52,633 bases of DNA from Candidatus Jorgensenbacteria bacterium RIFCSPLOWO2_01_FULL_45_25b (GTDB lineage: Bacteria; Patescibacteriota; Minisyncoccia; UBA6257; GWB1-50-10): contig MFKK01000034.1 in the NCBI GenBank assembly GCA_001781035.1, positions 1 to 52,633 on the forward strand, in the 5' to 3' direction. Positions 1,217-50,474 of the stretch are shown piece after piece (the first letter of the stretch is position 1; every line of letters starts with the position of its first letter). The notes beneath the pieces were generated by a model, which was not told the origin of the DNA, searched no databases, and saw only the letters and a list, made by a program, of their open reading frames with translations. Position numbers and translations under genes: made by a program.

Positions 1217-1404
1217 CGAATTTCTAATTTCTAAAAAACAGTTTTTTAAGAATTGTTTTGTGGGGGAGAGGGAAGGGGGACGAAATTTCTAATTGCTAAT
1301 TTCTAATGACTGGTTTTCCACAAGGGAGGGTGGTTTTGTGGTTTTGGTGTGGTATTATAAAAGAACATAAAGTTCGCATAATTTAAGTTAATATACCTTA
1401 TATT

Positions 1405-2769
1405 ATGAAACAAAGCCAAAAGCCACTCCCCTCTCACTTAGAAGATTTTTTGGATTGGTTGGTTCGTAAACGTAATCTTACTTTGAAAACTCAAGCCAAC
1501 TATGCCCGGTTCTTGGAGAAATTTTTTTCTTGGCTTGGCTCTAATTACCTTTTTTCCTTAAGGCCGCATGAACTTACTTCAGACCATTTGGAAAAGTATC
1601 GTTTTTTTCTTGTCTCTGATAAACATCTCAAGTCCTCAACTCAAAACATTTATCTTATAGCCCTTCGTTCCCTCTTAACGTATTTTGTTGAAAATAATAT
1701 TTTCGCTCCTTCTCCAGAAAAAGTACATTTACTGGGAAGTGTTTTGACCAAAAAACCTCGTTTTTTAAGTTTTCAAGAATTACGGTGCTTATTAGAACAG
1801 CCGGATGTTTCTATGATTCGAGGACTTCGAGATAGAGTAATTATGGAATTATTGCTTGCGACAGGCCTTCGGATAAGTGAACTTGTTCGCTTAAATAGAG
1901 ATTTTCTTTCAAGTGATAAAATTTCAGAAGATTGCCATTATTGGATAGGTCGTTATATGGCCGTTCGTCTTGATAAGAATGAGGCGCTTTTTGTTTCTTG
2001 GCGAAATGAAAAGAAACAATTATCACCGAAGCGTTTGAGTGTGCGAACGATACAGCATTTTTTTAAAAAATACGCCACTGAGGCGGGAGTGCCTTTTGCT
2101 ATCACTCCGCACATATTGCGTCACACGCAAGCACAAAATTTATTCACTAGGTCTGTTGACTTAAAACCGCTTTATCGGGCGTGTGGTCATTCTCAGATGT
2201 TTTCCGGTGAATATGTTGCTCCTGTTGGGAATATTCGTTCCGCTCTTCGAAAAAACGAATTTGTATGGCATGATGTTGAAAAACGTATTCAGGATGAAAT
2301 TTGCTGGCTTCGGGAAGTAATTTCAACCTTTCTACGCGAAGAAAAACATGCGCCTGATGGATGTAGCCATTGTTTTTTGCGTTCCATCGCTATTTTGATT
2401 GTGCAAGGGATTATAAGTGCGACGGAAATTCGTTTTGACCACACTCAAGTTTCTTTTTGGAAAAATCCTCATACTAATTCTTATCCGCAAGAGATTTATC
2501 ATGGAAAAGATTGGCATCATAGGACAATGAGTCAAATCGAGGGTCATTTTATTGTTCAGGGCTATAAAGTTGTTCGCCAGCCGATCCTACAACAAGGGCG
2601 GGCAGACCTCGGTGTTTCTGATTTTGGAGGTATGGACTTATTTATAGAAGTAGGAACGGTCTCGCTATACAAGCTTATAATAAATTTTTTAAGCATGGAT
2701 AATTTCGTGTATCTTATTGCTCCACACGAAGGAGTCTTGGTAGAGTTTATAAAGAAAAAGAAAAAATGA
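1405..2769 (+). CDS. Degenerate tyrosine-recombinase-like protein with a ~170 aa C-terminal extension (possible PD-(D/E)xK-like fold)
   Basis: The N-terminus aligns residue by residue with the neighbouring Xer ('FLDWL..K.LS.KTQ.NY.RFL..FF.WL', 'LRPHELTS.H'). It retains 'ATGLRISEL', 'HILRH', 'GH' and a late Tyr. It lacks the 'GKGGRTRTV' beta-hairpin that carries the catalytic Lys. The extension contains 'GRADLGV...DLFIEVGT', which resembles a D...E-x-K nuclease core. Confidence 0.6.
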   Translation: MKQSQKPLPSHLEDFLDWLVRKRNLTLKTQANYARFLEKFFSWLGSNYLFSLRPHELTSDHLEKYRFFLVSDKHLKSSTQNIYLIALRSLLTYFVENNIFAPSPEKVHLLGSVLTKKPRFLSFQELRCLLEQPDVSMIRGLRDRVIMELLLATGLRISELVRLNRDFLSSDKISEDCHYWIGRYMAVRLDKNEALFVSWRNEKKQLSPKRLSVRTIQHFFKKYATEAGVPFAITPHILRHTQAQNLFTRSVDLKPLYRACGHSQMFSGEYVAPVGNIRSALRKNEFVWHDVEKRIQDEICWLREVISTFLREEKHAPDGCSHCFLRSIAILIVQGIISATEIRFDHTQVSFWKNPHTNSYPQEIYHGKDWHHRTMSQIEGHFIVQGYKVVRQPILQQGRADLGVSDFGGMDLFIEVGTVSLYKLIINFLSMDNFVYLIAPHEGVLVEFIKKKKK

Positions 2770-2781
2770 TGTGACATAATT

Positions 2782-3729
2782 ATGAAAAACTCAAATAAAA
2801 GTATACAACAATACGTTTCTGATTTTCTTGACTGGATTGATGTGGAAAAGGGCCTAAGCTCAAAAACCCAGGAAAATTATTCGCGTTTCTTGAAAAGATT
2901 TTTTGTTTGGCTGGAAGAAAAGAAAATTCTTGATTTAAAGCCTCACGAACTTACTCCGGAACATATATGGGAGTACCGTATTTATCTTGCTCGCAAGACC
3001 CATTCTCGACGAACTGCGACCTCTTTAAAAAAATCTACTCAAAATTATTATCTCATCGTTCTTCGTTCGCTTCTCGCGTATTTTGTGGAGAGAAATATTC
3101 CCTCTCTTCCTCCTGAGAAGGTGAAGTTGGCACGGGATAAAGACGACAAGGAGATTCGTTTTCTGACCTTGGAGCAATTGGAGAAGCTTTTTTTTGTGCC
3201 CGATATTTCCTCTCCTGCAGGTGTTCGAGATAGGGCTATTTTGGAGACATTTTTTTCTACTGGAATGCGTGTTTCGGAGTTAGTTGCCCTGAATCTTGAT
3301 CAGGTAAGGTCGTCGCTCCATTTGGATTCGCTGGAACTTGGAATTGTGGGAAAGGGCGGCAGAACACGCACAGTGTATTTTTCAAAACGCGTGCTTTCCT
3401 GGATCGAAAAATACCTTGAGATGCGGGGTGATTTTGAAGAACCGCTTTTTATTAATTATCGTTCTCCGAAAACATCTTCCCGACGGCTTAGTGTTAAATC
3501 TATAGAGAATCTTGTGAAACGCTACGCTCTCCGAGCGGGTCTTCCTAAAAATACTACCCCACACGTGCTTCGACATTCTTTTGCTACTGATTTATTAAAT
3601 AAAGGTGTTGATATTAGAATTTTGCAAGAGTTTCTTGGTCATAAGAGTATTACTGCTACCCAGATATATACGCATGTCACGAGTAAAAAACTACGGGAGA
3701 TTCATAAGAAATTTCATGGTACTATATAG
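2782..3729 (+). CDS. XerC/XerD-family site-specific tyrosine recombinase (canonical)
   Basis: The full catalytic set is present: 'STGMRVSEL' (Arg), 'GKGGRTRTV' (Lys), 'HVLRHSFAT' (His-x-x-Arg) and 'LGHKSITATQIYTHV' (His, Tyr). Confidence 0.9.
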   Translation: MKNSNKSIQQYVSDFLDWIDVEKGLSSKTQENYSRFLKRFFVWLEEKKILDLKPHELTPEHIWEYRIYLARKTHSRRTATSLKKSTQNYYLIVLRSLLAYFVERNIPSLPPEKVKLARDKDDKEIRFLTLEQLEKLFFVPDISSPAGVRDRAILETFFSTGMRVSELVALNLDQVRSSLHLDSLELGIVGKGGRTRTVYFSKRVLSWIEKYLEMRGDFEEPLFINYRSPKTSSRRLSVKSIENLVKRYALRAGLPKNTTPHVLRHSFATDLLNKGVDIRILQEFLGHKSITATQIYTHVTSKKLREIHKKFHGTI

Positions 3730-3737
3730 AAGTATTT

Positions 3738-5192
3738 ATGACTAAAAAACACGTACATTTTGTGGGGGTTGGAGGCATAGGAATGAGCTCTCTTGCCCGA
3801 TGGTATTTGGCTCAAAATTGGGCTGTTTCGGGGTCTGACCTCTCCCCCTCTGAAATTACCAAAGAGCTTGAAAAGGAGGGCGTACGGGTCAAAATTGGGC
3901 ACAATTCCTCAAATTTGCCTCAAAAATTGAATGTTTTGGTGTATAGCAACGCTCTTCCGCAGAATACCCCTGAAATTGAGGGGGCGCGGAAATTGGGGGC
4001 TTCTGTTGTGAGCTATTCCGAGGCGTTGGGCGCTATTGCCAAAACATATACGACGCTTGCGGTTGCGGGGTCGCATGGAAAGAGCACGACGACCGCGCTT
4101 TTAGGTTTGTGTCTTCTTTCGGGCGGTTTTGACCCAACCGTTATTGTCGGAACGAAGGTGAAAGAGTTCGGCGGGAAAAATTTTCGTTTTGGAGGAGGCA
4201 AGTTTTTTGCGCTTGAGGCGGATGAGTATAAGGGAGCGTTTTTTCAATATGTTCCAACCTCTCTTATTATCACGAACATTGATAAGGAGCATTTGGATTT
4301 TTACAAGACGTTCGCGAACGTGAAGAGGGCGTTTTTGAGGTTTCTTGGGCAGGCGGTGCCGGGTGGGAAGTTTGTTTTCAATAGAGACGATGCTGTTTTG
4401 TGGGGATTACGGGCGCAGATTTTGCGTATCGCGAAAACGAAGCATTCGGAGATTCTTTGGTATTCGCTTCACTCCCCCATGGCGAAGAAGATTGAGCGAG
4501 TGTTGCGAATTCCCGGCAGGCACAATGTTTCAAACGCGCTCGCGGTTTATACGCTTGCCCGCGCGCTTGGCGTATTGGAGAGACGGATTTTTTCTGTCTT
4601 CCGAACATTTTCCGGTACGTGGAGGAGGATGGAGTACTGTGGCGATCTAAGGATCGCCACCGCGGATGAGCGCGGACTTGTACGCGGAAAAACGCGGAAA
4701 GAAACAAATGTTGAGGTGTACGATGATTACGCGCATCATCCGACGGAAATAAAGGCGACACTCTCTGCTTTTAAGCAATCCCCGTTAGAAGCAAAGCTTC
4801 TAACGGGGCAAGCCGCGAACGAACGCAAAAAGCGGAAGATTGTGTGCGTGTTTCAGCCTCATCAGGCGCATCGATTAAAATCGCTTTTTAAGGAGTTTGT
4901 TGATTCATTTCAAGATGCGGACGGACTTATTCTTCTTCCAACGTATCAGGTTCCTGGTCGGGATATTGCTTTGGACAAGCGATATTCATCCGAGGCGCTC
5001 GCGAAAGCAATCATCAGAAAGTATCCCCGAAAGCGTGTGTTGTATCTTGAAGACCCAAAAAGGCTGAAAGAGGAGATTTTCAATATGTTGCGCGGACTCC
5101 CCTCTTCGGACGGAGTTTTGGTTATGATGGGAGCGGGAGACATTTTTCAATTAACTTCGGAGTTGATTAAAAAAAGAATCTCTAATATCTAA
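3738..5192 (+). CDS. murC: UDP-N-acetylmuramate--L-alanine ligase
   Basis: Motifs 'HFVGVGGIGMS', 'GSHGKSTT', 'DDYAHHPTEI' and 'VFQPH' are present. The last codons and the stop lie inside a heptamer-repeat element. Confidence 0.9.
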   Translation: MTKKHVHFVGVGGIGMSSLARWYLAQNWAVSGSDLSPSEITKELEKEGVRVKIGHNSSNLPQKLNVLVYSNALPQNTPEIEGARKLGASVVSYSEALGAIAKTYTTLAVAGSHGKSTTTALLGLCLLSGGFDPTVIVGTKVKEFGGKNFRFGGGKFFALEADEYKGAFFQYVPTSLIITNIDKEHLDFYKTFANVKRAFLRFLGQAVPGGKFVFNRDDAVLWGLRAQILRIAKTKHSEILWYSLHSPMAKKIERVLRIPGRHNVSNALAVYTLARALGVLERRIFSVFRTFSGTWRRMEYCGDLRIATADERGLVRGKTRKETNVEVYDDYAHHPTEIKATLSAFKQSPLEAKLLTGQAANERKKRKIVCVFQPHQAHRLKSLFKEFVDSFQDADGLILLPTYQVPGRDIALDKRYSSEALAKAIIRKYPRKRVLYLEDPKRLKEEIFNMLRGLPSSDGVLVMMGAGDIFQLTSELIKKRISNI

Positions 5193-5324
5193 TATCTAAT
5201 TTCTAAATCCTAAACAATTTCAAAATATTAATCTCAAAAACGTAGTTTGATAGGCTCATTATAAAGTTTTGAATTTTGACATTTGAGATTGTTTAGAAAT
5301 TGGGGTTTAGAAATTAGAGATTTT
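5176..5324. repeat. AATTTCT-family heptamer-repeat hairpin element filling the murC / nuclease-gene spacer
   Basis: The left arm is 'aatctctaatatctaatatctaatttctaaatcctaaacaatttcaaaat'. The right arm is 'attttgacatttgagattgtttagaaattggggtttagaaattagagatt', an imperfect inverted repeat of the left. Confidence 0.8.
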
Positions 5325-5325
5325 T

Positions 5326-6087
5326 ATGTTGGATTATAAAAATGTTGAGGAATTTAAATCCCAATGCGGGTATGAAATTGACGGCGTGTGGTATCCGCGG
5401 GTGACGAAAATTGTTGATATTAAGTCAAAGCCCGCGCTGTATCGTTTTTACGGCGCGATGAAGAGTTATCAGGACGCCGAGCGCATGAAGGAGCAGTCCG
5501 CGATTGAGGGGACGCTTGTGCACGATACGATTGAGGCAATATTAACCGGACAGGAGCCTTCCATTCCTCTCTTAATCAAGCCTTCGGTGGACGCCTTTTT
5601 GAAGTTTTTAGAAGACAATTCCATTGAGGTTCAGACTCAATACGTTGAGTATCGTCTTTTTCATCCCACGCATCGCTACGCGGGAACGCTTGACGCTATC
5701 GCGACCATTCACGGCAAGACGGGAATTTTGGACATAAAAACGTCGCAGGCGATTTATAGGGATTATAACTTACAGACATCGGCCTATATGGCGGCGATGA
5801 TAGATAAGGTGCCGTCGCTTCAGGCGCGATGGATTTTGCGCATTGACCAGAATCAGAAGTGTCTTCAGTGCGGAGCCGTGTTGCGCACCAAGGGAGGGAA
5901 CGGAAAGATTCGCACCCAGTGGAATAATTATGTTATGCAGACGTGCGCGCATGAGTGGGGGCCGGCTCGCGGGCTCATTGAGCTTAAGGAGTTTCCTTTT
6001 TGGGAGAATGATTTTGAGGCGTTTTTAGGAGCGAAACGACTGTGGGAGTGGGAACATGAGGAGATGTTGAAGAAGATTGGGTATTAG
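5326..6087 (+). CDS. PD-(D/E)XK nuclease, RecB/Cas4-like
   Basis: The motifs 'GTLDAIA', 'GILDIKTS' (D...D-x-K) and 'QTSAY' (the Q-x-x-x-Y of RecB-family nucleases) are present. There are four Cys residues: one N-terminal, plus 'CLQCG' and 'TCAHEW'. Confidence 0.7.
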   Translation: MLDYKNVEEFKSQCGYEIDGVWYPRVTKIVDIKSKPALYRFYGAMKSYQDAERMKEQSAIEGTLVHDTIEAILTGQEPSIPLLIKPSVDAFLKFLEDNSIEVQTQYVEYRLFHPTHRYAGTLDAIATIHGKTGILDIKTSQAIYRDYNLQTSAYMAAMIDKVPSLQARWILRIDQNQKCLQCGAVLRTKGGNGKIRTQWNNYVMQTCAHEWGPARGLIELKEFPFWENDFEAFLGAKRLWEWEHEEMLKKIGY

Positions 6088-6145
6088 GTTTATAAAAGTT
6101 TTCTTTCTTTTCTGTCGCGACTAGTTATTTTTGTATAATGTTGAA

Positions 6146-6380
6146 CGTTCGCGACACGTTCCTACCGGGACCGGCGGTTGGTTTGCTCTAGTGGCAAGCA
6201 ACCATTGTTTCTATAATCACTGCTCCATGTTTTTGAATTTCCCCCGCCACACTCCCTTCACTCGGGCGCTCCGGGGCGCTAGCCCAAGTCTTACCCTCGT
6301 TCAAGGAGTGTGGCAGGGGAAATTATGTTGTTGTGGCGATAGAGTGTAACGCTTTTGGCGTGCGGACCCCGTGTGATCCA
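6146..6380 (+). ncRNA. Candidate structured RNA, enlarged variant of the 'CCUACCGGGA' family (copy C)
   Basis: A TATAAT box lies at 6134-6139. The 5' part 'GUUCCUACCGGGACCGGCGGUUGGUUUGC...GCAAGCAACC' matches copies A and B, including the hairpin with a bulged nucleotide. A long internal stem pairs 6237-6256 with 6305-6324. The closing pair is ACACG (6154-6158) with CGUGU (6370-6374). Confidence 0.35.
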
Positions 6381-6468
6381 TAAGCTCGCGTATGAGAAGA
6401 AAGAAACCCCCCAATCTTCTTTTTTGTGGGGAGGGGTGAGTTGGAAACCATGCCCCGAGTCCTTCCTC

Positions 6469-7221
6469 CTAGAGAGTCCATGAGAGCGCGTCTTGCGCTC
6501 TAATCATGGAGGATTGGATTTCTCCTCCGCAGAAACGGAAGAGGTGGTCTTTTATGAGATTCGCCGATCCCAGTATCGCTTCATCCGTGATTGCCAGACT
6601 TGTCGCTTCGCAGAAAAGCGCGATGTCTTGAGAACTCTCCGTGATTTTCGCCGTGTCGCTGTCTTTGTAGTTCCATCGGCGCGTGAGCACTTTTTTGCGG
6701 TCGGCGTACACCACCTCTCCTTTTTGTGTCGTTTCAGGCTCGCCACCGCCCAGCGGAAGGAATTGTTCTTCTCCCTCGCTGAATCGGAGAGTAATGTCGT
6801 CCTCTATTTGCGACAGGTCATAACCGCCTACCGGCAGGAACCATTCCAGTTCCGCGAGCAGATAGCAGTTCACCACCACATTGATGATGGGGGCGCTGTT
6901 TCCACGGACGATGCGCCGTAGAAGCGCTTCCGCGGTTGGTCGATGATCTTTCGGGTTCACTCCGAAACTGCGGTAGGTTTCCCGCCAAGCAAGCACGGTT
7001 GGATGCGTGTTGACGTCTTCGGGCGAGTATTGCGCTCGAAACTCATTCTCCATCTTCGCTTTGAGCGCGGATAGTTCTGGGTTTTCGCGCGCGTTCTTAA
7101 TACCTCGCGCGATTACGACGCCAATGCGGAGCGCCGGATACTTCTCGGCGACTTCCTTTTGGATTGAGAAATGGAGCTTGTTGTTTATAATTGCAGTTTT
7201 TGGGCAATAAGGGCGGCACAA
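6469..7221 (-). CDS. B3/B4 (PheT-like tRNA-binding) domain protein; start uncertain
   Basis: The homologous part begins near 'KLHFSIQKEVAEKYPALRIGVV'. No ATG or GTG lies upstream of it, so I took the TTG at 7221. ATT/ATA at 7191/7188 are alternatives. The long ORF-track N-terminus (to 7443) overlaps the upstream kinase gene and is not credible. Confidence 0.55.
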   Translation of the reverse strand: MCRPYCPKTAIINNKLHFSIQKEVAEKYPALRIGVVIARGIKNARENPELSALKAKMENEFRAQYSPEDVNTHPTVLAWRETYRSFGVNPKDHRPTAEALLRRIVRGNSAPIINVVVNCYLLAELEWFLPVGGYDLSQIEDDITLRFSEGEEQFLPLGGGEPETTQKGEVVYADRKKVLTRRWNYKDSDTAKITESSQDIALFCEATSLAITDEAILGSANLIKDHLFRFCGGEIQSSMIRAQDALSWTL

Positions 7222-7724
7222 TCTTTTGGAGGAAGGTTGGAATTGTCTATGATTGTCGCGGGACGAGACGCAGACGCCTTTGCATTCGGCTGTTCCAAAA
7301 ATTCCTGAAGCTCTTCTTCTGTTGAAATTTTTGTATGAAGGAGGCGGGAGGGTTCTTTGATTCTTTTTACCAGTTCGTCCATAGAACATTGAAGTTCCAC
7401 CAGATGAATCGCGCCGTTGTGTGTTTCCGCGCAAGCAACACATTCTTTGATAAATTCTTCCGCGCCGGAACTGCCACCCGTGAAGGTTATAATCATCCCC
7501 TTCAGTTTTGTTTTTAAAACGCCGTTTAGGAGGTCAATTCGGAAGCCCTTTTCCACCCCTTTTCCTTCAGGAAATTCTTTCGGAATAAATTTTTGTACGA
7601 TATCCAGAACGAGATGATTGTTAAGAAGAGGGAGCCCTGTTAATTTTTCCAACTCCTCCCCTACCGTTTGCTTTCCCACTCCCGGCAAGCCGTAGAGAAG
7701 GATGATTGTTGTTTTTGTATCCAT
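7185..7724 (-). CDS. P-loop NTPase / small-molecule kinase-like protein
   Basis: The Walker A motif 'GLPGVGKQT' lies at the N-terminus. The size of ~180 aa fits AAA_33 / shikimate-kinase-like proteins. Confidence 0.6.
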   Translation of the reverse strand: MDTKTTIILLYGLPGVGKQTVGEELEKLTGLPLLNNHLVLDIVQKFIPKEFPEGKGVEKGFRIDLLNGVLKTKLKGMIITFTGGSSGAEEFIKECVACAETHNGAIHLVELQCSMDELVKRIKEPSRLLHTKISTEEELQEFLEQPNAKASASRPATIIDNSNLPPKDCAALIAQKLQL

Positions 7725-7748
7725 GCGTTTTATTATATCATATTATTT

Positions 7749-9200
7749 TTATATTAACGGTTCCTCTGTCTGGCTCTCGTGACTTTCCTTCTTTCCTTTT
7801 TTGCCGGTGATTGCGGATTTTTCCCGCGCGCTTCGGATGATACTTACCTCTTCTTCCATCATCAGGCGTTTCGCCTCTTCTATCGGCACCGCGAATTTTT
7901 TTCTTGAGGAGGCTATGATTTCTTCTCTTTCAGAGGCGTAGTTTGGTCTTGTTATGTTTAGGGTTTCCGCGGAGAAGGGGTCGTATGTTTCGCCGTCTAT
8001 CGTCATTTTTATGTAGAATTCACGGACGCCAAGGTTAATCATGTCTTTTTGGTCAAAGACGGGAACCATTTCCGGTTTCAATTTTATGGAATCCTCTCCT
8101 CCCACCCGAAAGATGACGATGGTTCCCACGTTTCCCAAGACTGCCGCCTGGACGCTTGATAGGAGTTGTTGCATGTATTGGTGCGCCATCGTAAGGCAGA
8201 GACCGTACTTTCTCGCTTCCGAGAGGAGGTTTTCAAATGTTTGGGTTACCACATTTTGAAACTCATCCACGTAAAGATAAAAATCGTGGCGTTTATTTTC
8301 CGGGAGCGCCGCGCGCGCCATGCCTGCTTGTTTTATTTTTGTTACGAACATGGAGCCGAAGAAGCTGGAGTTTTCCTCCCCTATTTTTCCTTTCGCGAGG
8401 TTGATGAGGACAATCTTTCTTTCATTCATGATTTTTTCCAAGTCAATTTTATTTTCCTTTTGTCCGAAGATGTTGCGGAGCATCGGGTCGGAAAGGAATT
8501 GTCCGAGCTTGTTTACCAGAGGGATGATGGCATCGGTATCAAATTTTTCCGACCAGTCCGCGAATTCAATCGCCCAGAAGCGTTTTACCATGTCGTCTTC
8601 AATGTATTCAACCACTTTTTGGCGGTAGTTTCTGTCCGTTAGCATTGAAATCATTCCGCGCATGGTCGCGTGGGGATAATCAAGAAGCGCGAGACAGGTG
8701 AAGCGGAAGACGTGTTCAAGGCGTGGCGTCCAATTCGCGCCGAACTGTTTTTCCAGTACCTCAATCAACCCTTGCGTGAGCTGGTGCTTGAATTCGGGCG
8801 CGATGTTTGAGAGCGGATTGAAGGCGACCGGGTAGTCTAGATCGGATGGGTCAATGATAATCACATCCTCCACGCGGTTTTTGGGAACGAAATCCAGTAT
8901 CGCTTCAATGAGGTCGCCGTGAGGGTCCATCACGCAGACGCCGTGACCGTAGGCGATATCCTGGCGAATCAAAAGTTCAATCAGTTTTGATTTTCCGACG
9001 CCGCTCTTCCCCACCATGTAGAGATGGCGTCTGCGGTCTACCCGCTTTAATCCGAAAACGAATTTTTTTTCTTCAAGCGCCGCCACATAGTTTGTTCTGC
9101 CGATGAAGGAGACTTCTTTCGGGTCGATTCTTCCATACATGGGAAGTTCCGGCGGGGGCGGAGCATATTTAATTCGTTGAATTTTTGAGCGTTCTTGCAT
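7749..9200 (-). CDS. Soluble VirD4/TraD/TraG-like (type IV coupling protein-like) ATPase
   Basis: Walker A 'VGKSGVGKS', 'DPHGDL', Walker B 'FYLYVDEFQN', 'RKYGLCLTMAHQYMQQL' and 'GNVGTIVIFRVG' are present. There is no N-terminal transmembrane segment. Confidence 0.75.
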   Translation of the reverse strand: MQERSKIQRIKYAPPPPELPMYGRIDPKEVSFIGRTNYVAALEEKKFVFGLKRVDRRRHLYMVGKSGVGKSKLIELLIRQDIAYGHGVCVMDPHGDLIEAILDFVPKNRVEDVIIIDPSDLDYPVAFNPLSNIAPEFKHQLTQGLIEVLEKQFGANWTPRLEHVFRFTCLALLDYPHATMRGMISMLTDRNYRQKVVEYIEDDMVKRFWAIEFADWSEKFDTDAIIPLVNKLGQFLSDPMLRNIFGQKENKIDLEKIMNERKIVLINLAKGKIGEENSSFFGSMFVTKIKQAGMARAALPENKRHDFYLYVDEFQNVVTQTFENLLSEARKYGLCLTMAHQYMQQLLSSVQAAVLGNVGTIVIFRVGGEDSIKLKPEMVPVFDQKDMINLGVREFYIKMTIDGETYDPFSAETLNITRPNYASEREEIIASSRKKFAVPIEEAKRLMMEEEVSIIRSAREKSAITGKKGKKESHESQTEEPLI

Positions 9201-9270
9201 GATTTATATTTTAGTTATCAATGGCTTTGGAAGAGATTGTAAAAAGGTTAGGTACTAGAAGTTTTATACA

Positions 9271-9412
9271 CTCTCCAACGCTTCCCTACCGGGACCGCTC
9301 TTCGTCCGCTCCTGCGGCGGACGAGAGCTTAACTCTCAATGCTCGGACTCGCTTTCGCGAGACCAAGCTCCGAGCATTTCCGAGATATCCTGTACGGGAA
9401 GCGTTGAAGAGA
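9271..9412 (+). ncRNA. Candidate structured RNA, 'CCUACCGGGA...UCCUGUACGG' family (copy A)
   Basis: The outer stem pairs 'CUCUCCAACGCUUCCC' with 'GGGAAGCGUUGAAGAGAG'. An inner helix pairs CGGGA with UCCUG. Hairpin 1 is 'GCUCUUCGUCCGC..GCGGACGAGAGC'. The second arm pairs 'AUGCUCGGA' with 'UCCGAGCAU' and encloses 'CUCGC UUUC GCGAG ACCAAGC'. A U-rich tract follows. The RNA is antisense to the flanking genes. Confidence 0.5.
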
Positions 9413-9445
9413 GTTTCTTTATTTTTTTAATTTTCAAATCGAATT

Positions 9446-9982
9446 TTAAACGATTCCGATTTCTTCCAGAAACGCCTGATAATCTTTTAGCGTTTCTTTC
9501 GCGTCTTCATCGCTTATTTCAAATCCGGATGTGTTTACGATGTCATTTTTTGTTCTATGCGCCCGCCAGAGCCTTTCCAATGTTCTTACGTTTTCTTTGT
9601 CAATTTGTTCTATGCGGTCTGCCATGTGTTCCCCTTTTAATTCCAAGAGCTGGAGGATTTCGTCCGTGAACTCATCCGCCTGAATGATTGCTTGCAGAAG
9701 CGAATCCGGAGGAGAGCTTTCCGATTTTTTCATGAGCGTTTCCCATCGGTGTTTTAGAGCCTTATTATTTTCCCCTTCCGTTATTGTTTTTTTACCGGGC
9801 TTATAATCGTAGGTAAATTGAGACTTGTATTTCCATGCTTTTGGAAGCACGAATACAAAACCAGCAACAAGAAAAAAAGTGATGGAAAGAAACAGATATT
9901 TTATACCGTTGTAAACACTCCACCACGGTATTCCGAAGAAGGCTTCTTTGAATGTTTGTATGAAGAAGGATATGTAGCTCAT
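9446..9982 (-). CDS. Membrane-anchored hypothetical protein (one N-terminal TM, helical C-terminal domain)
   Basis: A hydrophobic segment 'IKYLFLSITFFLVAGFVFVLP' is present. The gene starts 6 nt after the upstream membrane-protein gene ends, which suggests translational linkage. Confidence 0.6.
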   Translation of the reverse strand: MSYISFFIQTFKEAFFGIPWWSVYNGIKYLFLSITFFLVAGFVFVLPKAWKYKSQFTYDYKPGKKTITEGENNKALKHRWETLMKKSESSPPDSLLQAIIQADEFTDEILQLLELKGEHMADRIEQIDKENVRTLERLWRAHRTKNDIVNTSGFEISDEDAKETLKDYQAFLEEIGIV

Positions 9983-9987
9983 GCTTT

Positions 9988-11385
9988 TTATTGATATTTC
10001 GCTATGTCTTCCTCATCTCCGAATATCGGAAGCCCGGATTGAGCCCCCGCTCTTCTTGATTCAACTCTTCGGAGGTGGGGCGCGGTCATAACGAGAATGG
10101 TTGGCGGATGAAAGAGAGAGGCAATCGCTTCGGTGTTTAAAATTGAAGTTTTCATCATGAAGTTCTGATTAAAAAAATGGGACGTGAGAAGCTTTCCCCA
10201 GAAGGTGTCTTTCGGCATCTCTCTTGTAAAGTAGTTCATTAGAAGGCGCTGTTTTCGGAATTGAACGCGTGTTTTTGGAAAGATATACGGGAATGCCCAG
10301 AGCTTTGCCCTGGTACTCATCGGTTCATTTAATATGAAGCCGTTTCTTCCCGCATCGCTGTACTGATTGAAGGCGCCGCGGATTCCCCTTCTCGCGTAGC
10401 TGTCGTAGAAGCCTTCCTGCGGGGCGATGTAGAGAAATCTTATGACGGTGTTAAAGGCGACCTTCCCGATATTATTCTCCATTTCCGTGAGCTTTTCCGT
10501 CTCTCCCGGAGAGCGAATGGAGATGCTTGTTTTCGCCTCTCCTTCCGGCGTAATAATCTGGCGCTTCGCGGTGTCTTCCTTGAACTTATCAATTATTTTT
10601 TGAGCGGGTTCCACCCAATCGGCGCTTGCCGGACAGATGAGAATTTGAACTCCCGCTATTTCGTTTTGTTTTATCTTCCCGAATACTTCAAGGAAATTTC
10701 CCATCGGGTCAACCCGCTTTTCTTCTCCCGGGTCGTCCAGAAAATGTTGATATGTTTTTATGGGGTAGACGGGATCTTTTTTTAATATCATGTCCGAGCC
10801 CCACATTTCATTTCCCGCCTCGTATATTTCCTTTGTGGTTTGAGGAAGGTGTTTCATGTAGTCTTCGCTTTTGACGAGTTCAATTTCTGGATAGTGGGCG
10901 AAGAAGGCCGCCTCCAGGAGTGTTTTCGCTTTTTCATATCCGCGGAAGTAAAAGTGTACCTCTCCCCCAAAGCTTATGATTTCCAAAGACATGTAGCGGG
11001 TTACCTCTCCGTCCCAGTAGATTTCTTTCGGATCGTCCGCCGTGTTTCGCAGGGAGTGAAGGCTCGCGAGCACCTGCTCCATCGCTTGCGGGCCTTTTTC
11101 GGTTTCTCGGGGAATGCGGATTTCATATACGATGTATTTTGTGTCGGCTTGAAAAATTTCTCTTCTCCAGAAGAGCCAGATGGAGAGGAAGTTTTTTATC
11201 ACAAACAAAAATAACCAGAACCACCAGGTTAGTTCAATGAATTTCATAAAGGCATTTTCAATTCCCAGTGGGAGAAAGAAAAAGATTCCCGCGAAACCCG
11301 CAATAAAGAGAATAATCCACACCTCCTCTTTTTTAAAAAGCTCTTCACCGGCATCCAGAATTATCTCTATCAGTTTTTTAAGCAT
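9988..11385 (-). CDS. Membrane protein (two N-terminal TM helices plus a large soluble domain), hypothetical
   Basis: Hydrophobic segments 'IILFIAGFAGIFFFLPLGI' and 'WWFWLFLFVIKNFLSIWLFW' are present. The coding frame is long and clean. I recognised no family motif. Confidence 0.6.
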   Translation of the reverse strand: MLKKLIEIILDAGEELFKKEEVWIILFIAGFAGIFFFLPLGIENAFMKFIELTWWFWLFLFVIKNFLSIWLFWRREIFQADTKYIVYEIRIPRETEKGPQAMEQVLASLHSLRNTADDPKEIYWDGEVTRYMSLEIISFGGEVHFYFRGYEKAKTLLEAAFFAHYPEIELVKSEDYMKHLPQTTKEIYEAGNEMWGSDMILKKDPVYPIKTYQHFLDDPGEEKRVDPMGNFLEVFGKIKQNEIAGVQILICPASADWVEPAQKIIDKFKEDTAKRQIITPEGEAKTSISIRSPGETEKLTEMENNIGKVAFNTVIRFLYIAPQEGFYDSYARRGIRGAFNQYSDAGRNGFILNEPMSTRAKLWAFPYIFPKTRVQFRKQRLLMNYFTREMPKDTFWGKLLTSHFFNQNFMMKTSILNTEAIASLFHPPTILVMTAPHLRRVESRRAGAQSGLPIFGDEEDIAKYQ

Positions 11386-11514
11386 TTGGTTTATTATACA
11401 TTACTTTTGACGCAGAATATAGAAATTTATATTAAGACTCAAGACTCAAGAAAAAAGACTCAGGAAACGAGAAATGGGGATATGGGAAATGAAGAAATAT
11501 GGAAAATTCTTGAT

Positions 11515-11548
11515 GCCTCAAAATTTAACGTACGTTAAATTTTGAGGC
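11515..11548. repeat. Perfect 34-bp palindrome
   Basis: The sequence 'gcctcaaaatttaacgt|acgttaaattttgaggc' has 17-bp arms and no loop. Confidence 0.8.
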
Positions 11549-11602
11549 AAGTGTTGAGCGAGCTTGAAATCATACTACTTGCTTCACGATTTGTTTTACG
11601 AC

Positions 11603-11630
11603 AAACCCCGACCACACGGTCGGGGTTTGT
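11603..11630 (-). terminator. Intrinsic terminator-like hairpin downstream of the HTH gene
   Basis: The GC-rich stem 'aaaccccgacc acac ggtcggggttt' is flanked by T/A runs on both sides. Confidence 0.6.
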
Positions 11631-11635
11631 TTGCT

Positions 11636-12652
11636 TTATGCTTCGCGGATGTCGTATTTTCCGGTTTCCAGCCTTCTGAAACGTTTTCTGTTTTGAAGAT
11701 TCAAGAGAATGGTGTTTTCCTTCAGGAAGCGTTTTTGATTTACCAGTTCAACCACTTCTTTTGAGTTCAGGGGGCCGTTTTCTTTTATGAGGTTTACGAT
11801 GACCTCGCGCACCGTTCCCGGAAGATAGCCGTATTCTTTGAGTCCATACATTCCCCTTCCGACCAGGACGAAGCGTTTGTCTTTGATTAGTTCGTTATGC
11901 ACCGTTTGCGTGTTTACCGGCTTCGCGCTGATTTTATTTTCGTGAATGAGCTTCGCGATTTGCTCAAAGTGGAGAGGCTTTCCATGTTTTTTAATCGCGA
12001 GATAGGCTTTGTCGCGCACGTTTTTCGGCTTGATTTCCGCCCATGTCATAAGCCCAAAATCTCCGAAGGCGTTTTTACCGAATTTTTTGGAGATTTGAAG
12101 GAGGCTTGAATTCGCGTATTCGTTTATTTTTTCCCTTAGTTCGGAATTTCCGAATATGCCTTCCCTTCCCGCTTCTTCAAAGAACGCTATCGCTTCTTTG
12201 ATGTAGTTCAACAGTTTTTCTTTTTCCTCCTTTCCGAGATGCCAGAAGCCCTTTGTGTCCGTTCCTTCTTTTTCGTAGAGAGGCTCTCCCGCCGCGAAAA
12301 AGAAAAATTGAATTTTGTTTTCAATGTTTTTTGCCGTGGGGTCAATGCCCAAAAGACGGGCAATGTTTCGCATGAAACCATACTCCTCTTCCACTCCCTC
12401 GCCTTCCCGAAGATAATTTTTCGCGATGTCCACAATTTCCCCAAAGCTTTTATTGATTTCTTTTTGAATTTTCAGAAGGCTCTGATTTTCAATCTGGCGA
12501 ACCCGCTCCCGAGTGATCGCCAAGACATCTCCAATTTCTTGGAGTGTTTCCTGTTTTCCCGCTAACCCATACCGTTTTACCATAATCCGTTTTTGTTTTG
12601 GGTTCAGGCTTTGGAGAATATTTTCTATCAGGTTTTCCAGGTTTATGACCAT
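11636..12652 (-). CDS. Sigma-70 region-4-like HTH protein with two HARE-HTH-like domains
   Basis: The N-terminus 'RYGL..ETLQEIGDVLAITRERVRQIENQSLLKI' is a region 4.2-type HTH. The C-terminus 'KPLHFEQIAKLI...DKRFVLVGRGMYGLKEYG' matches the RNA polymerase delta / HARE-HTH pattern. A second, weaker copy follows. Confidence 0.65.
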   Translation of the reverse strand: MVINLENLIENILQSLNPKQKRIMVKRYGLAGKQETLQEIGDVLAITRERVRQIENQSLLKIQKEINKSFGEIVDIAKNYLREGEGVEEEYGFMRNIARLLGIDPTAKNIENKIQFFFFAAGEPLYEKEGTDTKGFWHLGKEEKEKLLNYIKEAIAFFEEAGREGIFGNSELREKINEYANSSLLQISKKFGKNAFGDFGLMTWAEIKPKNVRDKAYLAIKKHGKPLHFEQIAKLIHENKISAKPVNTQTVHNELIKDKRFVLVGRGMYGLKEYGYLPGTVREVIVNLIKENGPLNSKEVVELVNQKRFLKENTILLNLQNRKRFRRLETGKYDIREA

Positions 12653-12700
12653 GTTTTATTTATACCATAAGTGTTAAAATAAGTCAAACCACTCTTGTTC

Positions 12701-13588
12701 CTATTTTTCTTTTGCTCTCCAGATATAGATAAGGGGGCTTGCCACGAATATGGAAGAGTAGGTTCCTATGATTGTGCCGACAAGAATGGTCAGGATGAAG
12801 TAATACAGCGTTGATGGCCCGAAGAAAAGAACGGCGAGCAGTATCAGAACAAGCGTCAGCGAGGTGTTGATTGACCTTACCATTGTTTCTTGAACGCTTT
12901 TGTTAATGATTGTTTCCATGTCGTCTTTTTTGTCTTTTGTCGCCAGGCGCTCTCTTATTCTATCAAAGACCACTATGGTGTCGTGTACCGAGAAGCCGAT
13001 GACTACCAAAAGCGCCACGATAAAATTCGTGTCTATTTCAATTCCCTTATACCATCCAAGAAAGGCGAGAAGCCCTGTCGGGATGCTTACATCGTGGAAG
13101 AGCGTAAGGAGCGTTACCACGCCATACTTCCATGATGTAATCGGATTTGAGACCTTCCTAAACGCCCAGGCGATGTAGAGAGAGATGCCGAGGAGAACCG
13201 CGATGATTGCCTGAATGGACTGCTTTCTTAGTTCCGTTCCGATTGTTGGTCCGATGTTTGAGAAGCTTACCTCCTCCGTTTCTCCGAATGTTTTTTTGAT
13301 TGTTTCAAGGTATGCCTGATGAGCCTCTTCTTTTATTTCGGGCAGACGGACGACAAATTCATTTTTCTCCCCTGTTTTTATGATCGGGTTTAGTTCCGGA
13401 TGATTTGCCCGCAGGACGGTTTTTATTTCTTCCGCGCTTACGCCTTTTTGAATCGTCAGACGCCATTCCGCGCCTCCCTTTAAATCTATTCCCTGTTTCA
13501 GGTCGAGCGTTGCCACAAGAATCCAGCTTACGAGGACGAGAATACTAGATGCTCCAAGAAAGATATGTTTATGTTTGATGAGATTCAT
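12701..13588 (-). CDS. secF: Protein translocase subunit SecF
   Basis: It has six-TM SecD/F-type topology, lies immediately downstream of secD, and carries a conserved 'DTIVVFDRIRE'-type segment. Confidence 0.85.
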   Translation of the reverse strand: MNLIKHKHIFLGASSILVLVSWILVATLDLKQGIDLKGGAEWRLTIQKGVSAEEIKTVLRANHPELNPIIKTGEKNEFVVRLPEIKEEAHQAYLETIKKTFGETEEVSFSNIGPTIGTELRKQSIQAIIAVLLGISLYIAWAFRKVSNPITSWKYGVVTLLTLFHDVSIPTGLLAFLGWYKGIEIDTNFIVALLVVIGFSVHDTIVVFDRIRERLATKDKKDDMETIINKSVQETMVRSINTSLTLVLILLAVLFFGPSTLYYFILTILVGTIIGTYSSIFVASPLIYIWRAKEK

Positions 13589-13604
13589 AATTAAAATTTC
13601 TAAT

Positions 13605-14891
13605 TTAGGATTTTTTTAGAAATATTCTTAGGAGAGCGCGGGTTATCGTGATTGCGGAAAACATGCTTATCAGAACGCCTATCAGAAGAGCGAGCGCGAA
13701 ACCTTTTACGAAGCTTGATGTGAAGTAATAGAGAGTAAGCGAGGTAATGATTGTTGAAATGTTGGAGTCGCGGATTGATGTCCATGCCCGTTTGAAACCC
13801 TCCTCAATCGCCGTTTCCCTTTCCCTTCCTTTTTTCAGTTCTTCTTTTGTCCGTTCAAAAACGAGGATGTTCGCGTCTACCGCCATACCGATTGAGAGAA
13901 TGAATCCCGCGATGCCGGAAAGAGTGAGAGTGATGGGAATGATTTTAAATATCCCAAGCGTGAGAGCAATATACATAAGAAGCGCTATAGAGGCAAAGAC
14001 ACCCATCTTTCGGTAGTATCCAATCATGAAAAGGATAACAAGGAGGGTTCCTATGCTTCCCGCGAGGAGTGCTTTTTGGAGAGAATCCTTTCCCAGTTCC
14101 GGGCTGATTGTTTGCTGATTTACGAGTGTTATGGGAGCAGGCAGGGCTCCGGCATTAAAGCGTTCAACAAAACCCTTCGCCTCTTTCACAGTGAAATTTC
14201 CCGTAATTTGAGCGTTTCCTCCCTCTATCTTTGTTTGCACGGTCGGCATTTGAAGGAGCTCGTTGTCCAAGAATATCGCGAGAGGCTTTCCGATGTTTCT
14301 TTCCGTTATTTCCGCGAAGAGTTTCCCTCCCTCGTTATTGAATTGGATGTTTACCACTCCTTCGCCGCTTATGTTATCCAGCGAAACTTGGGCTCCTTTT
14401 ACAAACCTGCCGTTTAACGCCGTTGGAAGAAAATCAATAGTTGTTGAGGCGGAATTTCCGATAAGCTCCATTTCCCCCTCTTCGCTTTTTTCTTTCGGCT
14501 TTTCAATCACTTCCCGAAATTCCAGGAAGGGAGTTTCGCCGATTTCTTGTATCGCCTGTTTAATGTCTTTTACTCCCGCGAGCTCAATCACGAGCCGGCT
14601 TCGTTCCCCGCTTTTTGTTATGAAGACGCGAGGCTCGCTTACCCCAAAAAGGTTTACGCGCCTTTCTATCACGTCCCGAAGGCCGTTTAAGACACTCTCC
14701 CTTTCCACGCCGTTTATCTGGCTTGTGTCTACCTCATAGATGAGATAGCTTCCTCCCGCGATGTCTAGCCCAAATGTCCACGGGCGGAAGGAGCTTATTT
14801 TTGACCAAAAAGGCTGATACGAAAAAACGCCGGCTATGAGAGATACGGCGATTGTTATTGCGAGGAGGGTTGTTTTCTTTTTTTCTTGCAT
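13605..14891 (-). CDS. secD: Protein translocase subunit SecD
   Basis: It has an N-terminal TM, a periplasmic domain 'GLDIAGGS', and a C-terminal SecD/F TM bundle 'VDANILVFERTKEE'. Confidence 0.85.
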   Translation of the reverse strand: MQEKKKTTLLAITIAVSLIAGVFSYQPFWSKISSFRPWTFGLDIAGGSYLIYEVDTSQINGVERESVLNGLRDVIERRVNLFGVSEPRVFITKSGERSRLVIELAGVKDIKQAIQEIGETPFLEFREVIEKPKEKSEEGEMELIGNSASTTIDFLPTALNGRFVKGAQVSLDNISGEGVVNIQFNNEGGKLFAEITERNIGKPLAIFLDNELLQMPTVQTKIEGGNAQITGNFTVKEAKGFVERFNAGALPAPITLVNQQTISPELGKDSLQKALLAGSIGTLLVILFMIGYYRKMGVFASIALLMYIALTLGIFKIIPITLTLSGIAGFILSIGMAVDANILVFERTKEELKKGRERETAIEEGFKRAWTSIRDSNISTIITSLTLYYFTSSFVKGFALALLIGVLISMFSAITITRALLRIFLKKS

Positions 14892-14973
14892 ACTCTTTTT
14901 ATTTGCTCTCGCTTGTTGCTTAGACGGCAGGAATACAACGTTCTTTATTCTACGCCATGTTATTTCAAAAAAT

Positions 14974-15200
14974 CAACCCCGTTAGAAAGTTTCGTATGAA
15001 AAAGGAGATTTGGTCTTGGTTTTTTGAAAAAAAACCCAGCGTAGTTTTCTCACTCATTCTCGCTCGTCCAGCGTCTCGCTCCGAGGTTTTGGTCGTTTTG
15101 CCCCGCCAAGGTGGGTACTATGCCCCCGCACAAATCCCTTCGGGATTCTGCAGGGCAGGCGAAAATGACCTCAAAATCCGTTCGGAAATCATGTTGGATT
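14974..15200 (+). ncRNA. Candidate structured RNA module X (copy 1), directly upstream of family copy B
   Basis: It shares 'CUCaCUCAUUCUCGCU', 'CCGAgG..', 'GGuCGUUUUGCCCCGCC' and a closing 'GGCGAAAAUGACC' with the reverse complement of 31961-32106. A G-U pair in the GGUCG/UGACC stem favours the plus strand. It begins with the box 'ACCCCGUUAG'. Confidence 0.35.
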
Positions 15201-15205
15201 TTATT

Positions 15206-15349
15206 CATCCCAAAGATAAGCTCCTACCAGGATCGCGGTTGGTTTGCTCCAGCGGCAAACCACCGCTGCCTCTCAACGGCGCGCCTCCTTTGGGAGACCA
15301 AGCGCGCGCCGCTTCCGAGAGCTCCTGTACGGAGCATATCTTTGGGATG
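15206..15349 (+). ncRNA. Candidate structured RNA, 'CCUACCGGGA...UCCUGUACGG' family (copy B)
   Basis: The outer stem pairs 'CAUCCCAAAGAUAAGCUCC' with 'GGAGCAUAUCUUUGGGAUG'; its sequence differs completely from copy A but still pairs. The inner helix is CAGGA/UCCUG. Hairpin 1 is 'GCGGUUGGUUUGC..GCAAACCACCGC' with a bulged U. The second arm pairs 'CGGCGCGC' with 'GCGCGCCG' and encloses 'CUCC UUUG GGAG ACCAAGC'. A U-rich tract follows. Confidence 0.5.
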
Positions 15350-15419
15350 TTTTGATTTCTCCAATTTTCTCTTTTGTGGTGTGAAAGAATATGTGAAGAT
15401 ATGATTATGTTTATTCTTT

Positions 15420-46037: not shown

Positions 46038-46450
46038 TAAAATGTTTTGTTGAAAGTAAACTTTTTAAGGTAGAAGTTTATCCTCTGCGTGAGGTATAAA
46101 AGTGTATTGCTCGAATAAGCAAGGTGGGATTTATTAGTACTCCTCGGCTCCATCCCTTGCGGGACTTCCACCTAGAGCCTATCAACCTGGTAGTCTTCCA
46201 GGAATCCATGATGCATTATCTTGGGAGGGGCTTCGTGCTTAGATGCCTTCAGCGCTTATCCCTTCCGAACATAGCTACCCAGCGATTCACCTGGTGGCAA
46301 AGCTGGTAGACCAGAGGTTCGTTCAACCCGGTCCTCTCGTACTAGGGTCAACTTCCCTCAAGCATCGTAACGCCGACAGTAGATAGAGACCAACCTGTCT
46401 CACGACGGTTTGAACCCAGCTCGCGTACCACTTTAATTGGCGAACAGCCA

Positions 46451-46483
<33 letters not shown>

Positions 46484-46497
46484 GTGAGCCGACATCG

Positions 46498-47331: not shown

Positions 47332-47952
47332 AGGTGCCGAGCTCCGTCGTCGATGTGGACTCTCGGACGGAACCAGCCTGTTATCCCCGGAGTAGCTTTT
47401 ATCCGTTATCTCCGACCTTCCTATAAAGATTCGTCGGGTCGCTAAGCTCTGCTTTCGCACCTGCGCGACTTGTATGTCTTGCAGTTAAGCTGGCTTTTGC
47501 CTTTACGCGTCCAGCCCGATTTCCATCCGGGCTAAGCCAACCTTAATAGACTCCTCCGTTACTTTTTGGGAGGAATCCGCCCCAGATAAACTGCCCACCA
47601 GGCACTGTCTCCACGGCGTTTTGCGCCGCAGGTTAGATATTAACAACTAAAAGATGGGTATTTCACTGACGGCTCCATCCCATCCGAAAACAGGACTTCA
47701 AAGCCTCCCCACTATGCTACGCATCCAGACATTAATACCAATACCAAGCTACAGTAAAGCTTCCGGGGTCTTTTCGTCTTACTGTCGGTATCCCGCGTCT
47801 TCACGGGAATCGCATTTTCATCGGGCTCCTCGTTGAGACAGTTCTCCAGTCGTTACACCTTTCGTGCGCTCCGGAACTTACCCGGAAAGGAATTGCGCTA
47901 CCTTAGAACGGTTATAGTTACCGCTGACATTGACGAGGGCTTCGGACAGTAA

Positions 47953-50374: not shown

Positions 50375-50474
50375 CAGGTTTGGGCTGTTCCCTTTTCGCT
50401 CGCCGCTACTTGGGGAATACAAATTTGTCTCTTTTCCACCAGGTACTTAGATGTTTCAGTTCCCTGGGTGCGCT

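Follow-up and report, generated by a model that had tools for sequence, protein, structure and literature searches.

We analysed a 52,633-nt contig (hereafter the window) of a Candidate Phyla Radiation (CPR) bacterium from the Rifle aquifer, Candidatus Jorgensenbacteria bacterium RIFCSPLOWO2_01_FULL_45_25b (assembly GCA_001781035.1, contig MFKK01000034.1), and found in it two full copies (A and B) and one partial copy (C) of a folded element about 140 nt long. Judged by sequence comparison across loci, the structured element is genuine, has been conserved in evolution and covaries strongly. We give an even chance to the interpretation that A and B belong to a family of ~140-nt non-autonomous palindromic interspersed elements in Paceibacteria-type CPR, of the same kind as the Rickettsia palindromic elements (RPEs) or MITEs (miniature transposable elements with inverted repeats). 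The element is read as a dispersed palindromic repeat because copies lie inside genes, syntenic sites in relatives are either filled or empty, some copies are mosaics, orientation is mixed and the pairing is strand-symmetric. An earlier reading of the letters alone (the sequence-only reading) had proposed a new structured RNA family with no known match, and that part holds. It had also preferred a functional RNA to a repeat, a preference not supported in view of copies in frame within open reading frames (ORFs), variable syntenic sites and truncated or mosaic copies.

Copies A, B and C in the Window

The copies and their parts are listed below; all lie on the plus strand, and the two full elements are supported by folding and by covariance-model scores.

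9271-9412, plus strand: copy A, full element
9271-9286 / 9396-9412, plus strand: copy A, stem P1
9287-9289 / 9393-9395, plus strand: copy A, internal loop UAC
9290-9294 / 9388-9392, plus strand: copy A, stem P2 (CGGGA/UCCUG)
9297-9328, plus strand: copy A, hairpin P3 with loop UCCUGCG and a bulged U
9333-9337 / 9382-9385, plus strand: copy A, CUCUC pairing with GAGA
9340-9347 / 9369-9376, plus strand: copy A, stem P4
9348-9361, plus strand: copy A, hairpin P5
9362-9368, plus strand: copy A, bulge ACCAAGC (bulge UCC inside 9377-9381)
15206-15349, plus strand: copy B, full element
15206-15224 / 15331-15349, plus strand: copy B, stem P1
15228-15232 / 15323-15327, plus strand: copy B, stem P2 (CAGGA/UCCUG)
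15235-15266, plus strand: copy B, hairpin P3 with loop UCCAGCG
15270-15274 / 15317-15321, plus strand: copy B, CUCUC pairing with GAGAG
15277-15284 / 15304-15311, plus strand: copy B, stem P4
15285-15296, plus strand: copy B, hairpin P5 (bulge ACCAAGC at 15297-15303)
6160-6203, plus strand: copy C, partial, the B-like 5' third (5' strand of P2 and hairpin P3 with loop UCUAGUG)

A covariance-model scan of the whole 52.6 kb with filters off found no other copies. Copies A and B have one common three-way-junction architecture, and they lie exactly where the sequence-only reading had placed them. The blocks that it listed are all present, namely the UAC/GUAC loop, the helix CGGGA/UCCUG against CAGGA/UCCUG, the hairpin with the bulged U, CUCUCAA, GAGACCAAGC and UUCCGAGA. 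The closing stems of A and B, as it had also noted, differ in sequence and are paired in both copies. The minimum free energy (MFE) was −77.4 kcal/mol for A (z = −9.0) and −81.0 kcal/mol for B (z = −8.7), and none of 200 shuffles was equally stable in either case. Copy A scored 123.4 bits with our first covariance model (R1) and 123.2 bits with the second (R2), and copy B scored 130.8 bits with R1. The 20-nt 3' block TTCCGAGANNTCCTGTACGG, common to A and B, occurs exactly twice in the window, against 0.02 occurrences expected. U-rich tails follow both copies on the 3' side, and the genes on both sides of each copy are on the minus strand, in agreement with the earlier description.

Copy C is a different case. 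It had been put forward as a third paralogue spanning 6146-6380, and a TATAAT box was said to precede it. The box is there (6134-6139, immediately 5' of the copy), and 40 of the 44 nucleotides at 6160-6203 are identical to B, P3 stem included. The remainder (6204-6380) forms another long hairpin, whose architecture is only loosely similar (CUAUA...UAUAG; a hairpin and then CCCAAGU). The covariance-model scores were 9.4 and 12.9 bits (E = 0.15-1.6), with the match limited to the 5' third, and the interval 6146-6380 folds unremarkably (z = −2.6). Thus two of the three paralogues are full copies and the third is only a fragment.

Copy C sits in a convergent gap between blocks of plus- and minus-strand genes. 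All genes are on the plus strand from 29 to 6087 and nearly all on the minus strand from 6469 onward, and GC skew falls from +0.12 to about zero or negative values near 6.1-6.5 kb. This switch of orientation and skew at about 6090-6470 may mark a replication terminus.

Both full copies are spanned by plus-strand ORFs. A 132-aa ORF (14957-15355) covers copy B and is called as a gene in the Joint Genome Institute annotation of the same contig (L003, 2537-2935). A 69-aa ORF (9221-9430) covers copy A, and its frame relative to CUCUC is the same as in the ORF over B. These ORFs are likely to be spurious 'hypothetical proteins' produced by a stop-poor element.

Consensus Fold and Covariation

The consensus fold begins at the 5' end with the closing stem P1/P2, which has variable imperfections and is followed by 'ACCG' and by P3, a hairpin with a bulged base and the loop UCCNGCG. 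After a linker of 3-4 nt, CUCUC pairs with a more 3' GAGAG, while the adjoining AA pairs with the UU of UUUCC and leaves a UCC bulge. The 3' part is made up of P4, the P5 hairpin, a 7-nt bulge (A/C)CC(A/G)AGC and the 3' strands of P4, P2 and P1. The closing stem bounds a three-way junction with two arms. The UAC/UAC internal loop of A and B is not general in the family.

P1/P2 has 17-26 bp in A, B and the six homologous loci L017, L018, L019, L044, L053 and L054, and its sequence is different at every locus. Sequence conservation is concentrated in the unpaired parts ('ACCG', the P3 loop UCCNGCG, the 7-nt bulge and the 3-nt UCC bulge) and in CUCUC...GAGAG.

RNAalifold applied to ten sequences gave 41 pairs, 33 of them with compensatory changes. 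In an alignment of 17 sequences fitted to the covariance model, standard pairs made up 90.8% of the pair cells, against 63.9% in shuffles, and both-sided changes occurred in 36 of the 41 pairs; none of 500 shuffles reached the observed values. When the partners were slid by 1-3 columns as a control, standard pairs dropped to 35-46%.

Change is very uneven along the element, as follows from the comparison of orthologous copies downstream of a PilB-like ATPase gene (L046, 414-551, and L053, 568-713). P2, P4 and the inner part of P1 are nearly the same in these two copies, and the P3 and P5 stems are entirely different.

Family Members in Other Genomes and Metagenomes

The sequence-only reading had suggested building a covariance model and searching genomes and metagenomes with it. 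Our search pattern consisted of the three conserved blocks CTCTCAA...ACCAAGC...TTCCGAGA, and R1 was built from ten sequences. Among genomes of the Genome Taxonomy Database, the pattern found true homologues in metagenome-assembled genomes (MAGs) of Paceibacterota, Liptonbacteria, Azambacteria and one further member of the Patescibacteria (L017-L020). Among metagenomes, it found them at L044/L059, L045/L042, L046, L053 and L054. The other pattern matches were chance matches in coding DNA. R1 found divergent copies beyond the reach of the pattern, scoring 56-66 bits (L054, 3046-3192; L063, 5605-5744; L068, 3452-3598). Pattern and model together placed members at about 12 independent loci in Paceibacteria, Liptonbacteria and Azambacteria MAGs and in groundwater metagenomes, with strong covariation. 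L054 and L063 each carry two copies on one contig. In addition, ten contigs with an identical SecD were 99.5-100% identical to the window, with an identical copy B in all of them. The idea of a phage-borne element was rejected, as two scans of viral contigs gave chance matches in coding DNA only.

Copies Inside Protein-Coding Genes

Five species carry the element within an ORF for PIG-L, an LmbE-type deacetylase (L054, L061, L062, L063 and L064; 95-121 bits). The 247-aa ORF of L054 reads straight through the element on the sense strand, and the four further orthologues match the model at 95-117 bits. The element is 148, 148, 151, 148 and 148 nt long in these genes, so that the differences are multiples of 3, and the gene frame is free of stops. 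P4 is fully paired in L054 (CGCGGCGA/UCGCCGCG) and in L064 (UCCGCUGG/CCAGCGGA).

Most of 1,626 PIG-L homologues are 197-205 aa long, and the protein alignment shows an insert of 45-48 aa in close relatives, missing from most homologues, between the helix ...LPEIRRR... and the strand FDYVFTH. The orthologues with an empty site (L067, L068) have 9 codons there, against about 54 in filled sites; filled and empty sites are too diverged to define the junctions. In the AlphaFold2 prediction for P0001, the insert is a low-confidence loop between the helix at 78-100 and the strand at 143-149 (predicted local distance difference test, pLDDT, <50 at residues 103-132), whereas the remainder has pLDDT >90 and the mean is 84. 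With their small number of stop codons, copies would be able to survive in frame in protein surface loops; the sense frames of the element have fewer stops than shuffles, although not decisively.

A neighbour-joining tree of the PIG-L insert intermixes full, short and empty states and is too poorly resolved for a history of gain and loss, so that one gain with several losses and repeated gains are not separated. Per-module identities between orthologous copies fall unevenly, fastest in the P4/P5 arm; swapping of modules between them was rejected, as no clean replacement was seen in these identities. The idea that B is a relic of a lost PIG-L gene was dropped as well, since tblastn found no PIG-L remnant in the window outside the element.

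Two further inserts were observed at the same PIG-L site. In L066 (3820-4518), the 5' strand of P1/P2 is kept and the 3' closing strand is lost, while other perfect hairpins stand in place of P3 and the P4/P5 arm, still in frame; this is a reshaped or decaying copy. An insert of 18-20 aa (e.g., GGSPSSSVGISARSL) occurs at the exact site in L065 (10001-10672), P0006, P0009, P0011, P0015, P0017 and P0022. It has no detectable similarity to the element; what is left after a deletion, or another insertion into a permissive loop, could account for it.

The second kind of host gene codes for valyl-tRNA synthetase (ValRS), in which L045 carries the element in antisense. In the ValRS of T. thermophilus (1gax), only 9 residues correspond to residues 382-432 of the reconstructed protein, which amounts to an insert of ~50 aa between IPAW(Y/F)CE and the CxxC knuckle. 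In the L045 assembly the reading frame changes inside the element at the very point where P3 is broken, and a second sample gave an identical sequence; this means either a damaged gene or an error in the consensus sequence.

Neighbouring Genes, Orientation and Synteny

The genes next to the copies are unrelated to one another and include a TrwB-like coupling protein, a DUF8128 operon, SecD, a P-type ATPase, DUF192, GAPDH, a prepilin peptidase, GlmS, a subtilase, an MFS transporter, an M50 peptidase and the PilB-like ATPase. Since the neighbours are unrelated and the orientation is variable, a leader or riboswitch of the neighbouring genes was rejected. The placement antisense to flanking genes, claimed for A and B, holds for these two copies but is not a property of the family. 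About five loci are antisense to their neighbours (A, B, L019, L044, L045) and six are sense (L017, L018, L020, L046/L053, the PIG-L copies and the copies in the spacer between SecD and PIG-L). Orientation relative to neighbouring genes is therefore about 50:50, with no preference. A replication-strand bias was likewise rejected, as element orientation against the local majority gene direction was about 4:4 across loci.

Comparison with syntenic relatives shows filled and empty sites. L061, L065 and L067 have the gene order of the window (TrwB, a 195-aa gene, DUF8128, a sigma-70 region-4 protein, SecF and SecD), with TrwB 75% identical between the window and these relatives. The junction between TrwB and the 195-aa gene measures 6-50 nt in L061, L065 and L067, against 245 nt in the window, where it contains copy A. 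L054, L063 and L068 have the copy in the SecD/PIG-L spacer; L061, L065 and L067 lack it.

Truncated, mosaic or decayed copies were also found: C, with its B-like 5' third, L045 and L066. In L045, the 3' 97 nt of the copy match B at about 88% identity, and its 5' part is unrelated. By inspection, no direct repeats adjoin P1 in A or B.

The syntenic genes form a common cluster in the window (7749-12652), L061, L065 and L067, with a TrwB/VirD4-like coupling ATPase, DUF8128 and a sigma-70 region-4/HARE-HTH protein, adjoining SecDF. The cluster includes a small protein of 178-198 aa that is only 22-27% identical between genomes, and the genomes are Liptonbacteria-like. In L063 (4138-5945), no SecD is called between SecF and the spacer copy, and about 1.8 kb holds only a 71-aa ORF; SecD may be disrupted or frameshifted there.

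Strand Symmetry of the Pairing

The sequence-only reading had argued that the wobble pairs fit the plus strand. Our counts do not agree with this. The pair cells of 17 members comprise 587 Watson-Crick pairs, 35 G-U pairs, 23 A-C pairs and 40 other mismatches, and 17 of the 35 G-U cells represent one invariant U.G at the closure of the P3 loop. Without it, 18 G-U cells stand against 23 A-C cells, and P4 has no G-U and five A-C. The energy of the consensus structure is on average 2.4 kcal/mol in favour of the complement strand (p = 0.07), and folding without constraint gives a lower MFE on the complement in 15 of 17 copies, a difference that probably comes from the conserved loops, which turn G/U-rich there. 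Because G-U is no commoner than A-C and there is no energy preference, the pairing does not identify a functional RNA strand. The C/A-rich unpaired blocks are the sole remaining argument for the CUCUCAA strand.

Stems that are nearly pure Watson-Crick and strand-symmetric fit constraint at the DNA level, or hairpin-templated correction, better than ordinary RNA evolution. The element might accordingly be a DNA site, in which a hairpin or cruciform exposes the loops to a methyltransferase, an HUH/Y1 transposase or a replication or recombination factor. Pairing that is equally good on both strands, orientation independent of transcription, and the conserved bulged base and loop of P3 are in line with this idea. 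P3 recalls the imperfect hairpins recognised by IS200/IS605 TnpA, and the loops of CIR elements. Recognition by a methyltransferase has been proposed for the Caulobacter CIR elements (PMC2229807). We consider a DNA site quite unlikely here: none of the loci has a partner gene close by, a GTAG/CGTC tag and R'/R'' boxes are lacking, and conserved asymmetric bulges are unusual for cruciform sites.

No Match to Known RNA Families and Elements

Rfam 15 at the gathering threshold gave no match at A, B or C on either strand, and in the window it detected only the 23S and 5S rRNA genes. Permissive Rfam scans, which covered 5.5-16 kb and also the two full copies by themselves on both strands, gave chance-level matches only (10-14 bits). 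ARAGORN found no tRNA or tmRNA genes in the window.

Several known mobile or structured elements were rejected as candidates. The R''(RYYYAAC)/R'(GTTRRRY) boxes of integron attC sites are loosely resembled by copy A only (CCAAC...GTTGAAG), and not by B, L017, L018 or L019; attC identity is excluded because in-frame copies are incompatible with an attC site. A retron msr-msd was rejected, as no reverse transcriptase was found among the neighbours in the window or at any of 15 loci. For IS200/IS605-PATE or REP elements, there is no transposase nearby, no conserved end box and no GTAG tag.

In a scan for promoters and terminators, counts were equal to the shuffled expectation, with no site at A, B or C. 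This bears on the explanation closest to the sequence-only reading, that of a family of trans-acting small RNA (sRNA) genes, each with its own promoter, with CUCUCAA on the transcribed strand and with P1 and a U-tract at the end. A protein or GGA-type sites in mRNAs would then be contacted by the C/A-rich loops (UCC, ACCAAGC). Such genes would account for the strong covariation and the conserved unpaired blocks, which are C/A-rich on the CUCUCAA strand, as expected of open loops. There are also −10-like boxes a few nucleotides upstream of P1 in C and in L019, besides the U-rich tails after A and B, and on the plus strand A and B cannot be untranslated regions of their neighbours. Apart from the negative scan, however, U-tails are absent in L017, L018 and L019, and sRNA genes sit poorly with the in-frame ORF copies and the antisense ValRS copy, with truncated and mosaic copies, with the missing element at syntenic sites in relatives and with the balance of G-U and A-C and of energies between strands. 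We regard the sRNA explanation as improbable.

Comparison with Known Repeats

RPEs (Ogata et al. 2000, summarised in PMC2229807 and PMC10969869) are 105-146 bp long, and their ends pair into a long stem. They are found in intergenic DNA and fused in frame into conserved genes, and the encoded protein can stay active (PMC2229807, PMC10969869). The CPR element resembles them in its size of about 140 nt, its long 5'-3' closing stem, its dispersed copies in a small reduced genome and the lack of a known transposase, and also in being both intergenic and in frame in conserved, unrelated protein genes. This is a likeness of kind, and homology is not claimed; no sequence relationship is expected because the host phylum differs. 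There are differences too. The CPR element is a branched three-way junction, whereas RPEs are simple hairpins; its stems vary and its loops are conserved, whereas what defines RPE families is a conserved sequence and peptide; and at least one of its in-gene copies is antisense (ValRS).

MITEs and small palindromic repeats such as Correia/NEMIS, ERIC, RUP and CIR are 100-200 bp long, have transcripts that fold into stable stem-loops, are intergenic in both orientations and vary in presence between relatives, all of which is similar to the CPR element. CIR elements present a conserved motif in the loop of a hairpin (PMC2229807), RNase III cuts Correia elements, and ERIC elements change the decay of mRNAs (PMC10969869). 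Conserved terminal inverted repeats define MITEs, however, whereas P1 of the CPR element is locus-specific, and it has neither a target-site duplication that we could see nor a known related autonomous insertion sequence.

Multi-copy structured RNA families of the tRNA-like pattern share with the element the conserved loops, the covarying stems, the very stable fold and paralogous copies with different stem sequences in one genome. The CPR element differs from them in having no Rfam match, in lying in frame within ORFs, in its truncated copies, in lacking wobble-pair asymmetry and in being dispensable at syntenic sites.

The literature that we searched contained no account of CPR genomes with dispersed palindromic repeats or with repeats inserted in frame. 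The element is new in CPR and previously uncatalogued, and no repeat family of its kind seems to have been described earlier for CPR bacteria.

Nature and Maintenance of the Element

A and B are full-length, well-folded copies in the spacers of minus-strand operons; they would be resident copies of a dispersed palindromic repeat, and they are probably passive passengers. Transcripts containing A or B on either strand would hold a very stable branched hairpin with a duplex of RNase III size, which could affect processing or termination. Such an element would spread, or would once have spread, as a selfish repeat. A putative trans-acting protein would recognise the folded single strand (DNA or RNA) through the conserved loops, and the stems would be kept paired by selection for the fold, by hairpin-templated correction during replication, or by both. 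It may be explained in this way that the stems are nearly pure Watson-Crick on both strands. Hairpin-templated correction (quasi-palindrome template switching) could keep stems paired without selection. It would not preserve asymmetric bulges, so that some sequence-specific constraint would have to act on the folded strand.

Several points weigh against a repeat of this kind. The stems, the terminal one among them, are diverged nearly throughout and the loops are conserved, a pattern that marks a functional structured RNA; in classical MITEs and RPEs, stem and terminal-repeat sequences stay alike among copies, and a branched-junction fold does not fit a simple selfish repeat. The conservation of three of the blocks is partly ascertainment, because ten of the 17 aligned sequences were found by the pattern requiring them; the P3 loop and 'ACCG' are absent from that pattern and are still conserved, and independently found copies have the block variants CUCUCGG, AUCUCAC, ACCGAGC, UCCGAGC and CCUCCGAUAG. 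No transposase, conserved terminal repeat or target-site duplication was found at the loci. No presence/absence polymorphism was found among the ten near-identical contigs, which are uninformative on this question because all carry the identical copy B. Mobility is thus inferred from between-species comparison only. Finally, the fold of the orthologous PIG-L copies is preserved through multiple compensatory double changes while the encoded peptide drifts. Of the 8 pairs in P4, 5 are different between L054 and L064, and neither copy has a broken pair. This implies constraint at the resident locus, which simple selfish decay does not predict.

The fold and the loops may be under purifying selection at each locus, even in the PIG-L and ValRS ORFs, in which case the element would be a CPR-specific functional RNA or single-stranded DNA module. 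Its role might be that of a platform for protein binding, of a processing signal or of a ribozyme of an undiscovered class; it would spread like a mobile element, and ribosomes would read through it within genes. We regard this as a minority possibility.

The same compensatory changes in PIG-L mRNAs would suit a domesticated cis-acting RNA module that, transcribed in untranslated regions, operon spacers or ORFs, acts on the host transcript as a site for RNase III or other processing, as a stability element or as a platform where a CPR-specific RNA-binding protein docks. P1, a near-perfect duplex of 17-26 bp, is suitable for such a role, and there is precedent in the Correia and ERIC elements (PMC10969869). 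On the other hand, the host genes are functionally unrelated (SecD, P-type ATPase, GlmS, GAPDH, PilB-like ATPase, ValRS and PIG-L), close relatives do without the element at the same site, and at half of the loci it is antisense to the genes around it, so that the mRNAs there would lack the conserved-loop strand. A cis-acting module is therefore unlikely in our estimation.

Other Features of the Window

The 23S rRNA gene (46115-50779, minus strand) is 4665 nt long, against 2925 positions in the model, and has several large insertions (e.g., of 138 and 164 nt). One insertion encodes a LAGLIDADG endonuclease (ORF 46637-47218, minus strand; Pfam E = 1.8 × 10−42). Such insertions in 23S rRNA are typical of CPR rRNA introns. 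The element model gave no match in any of the 23S rRNA insertions.

Between the DUF8128 and sigma-70 region-4 genes, a strong G+C-rich hairpin of 14 bp (GACAAACCCCGACC...GGTCGGGGTTTGTT) lies at 11600-11631. It resembles a terminator on both strands and has no relation to the element.

Implications for CPR Genomes

CPR (Patescibacteria) genomes are tiny and poorly understood, and a repeat family of this kind bears on a gap in their biology. It has consequences for annotation, since the inserts in PIG-L and ValRS inflate protein families and copy B has already been called a 132-aa 'hypothetical protein'. It also calls for caution in the discovery of non-coding RNAs, because excellent covariation alone does not show that an RNA is trans-acting. 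If the maintenance of the fold within ORFs reflects selection, the element would be a rare case of one structured module in both coding and non-coding contexts, and it would offer a route to a CPR-specific partner protein.

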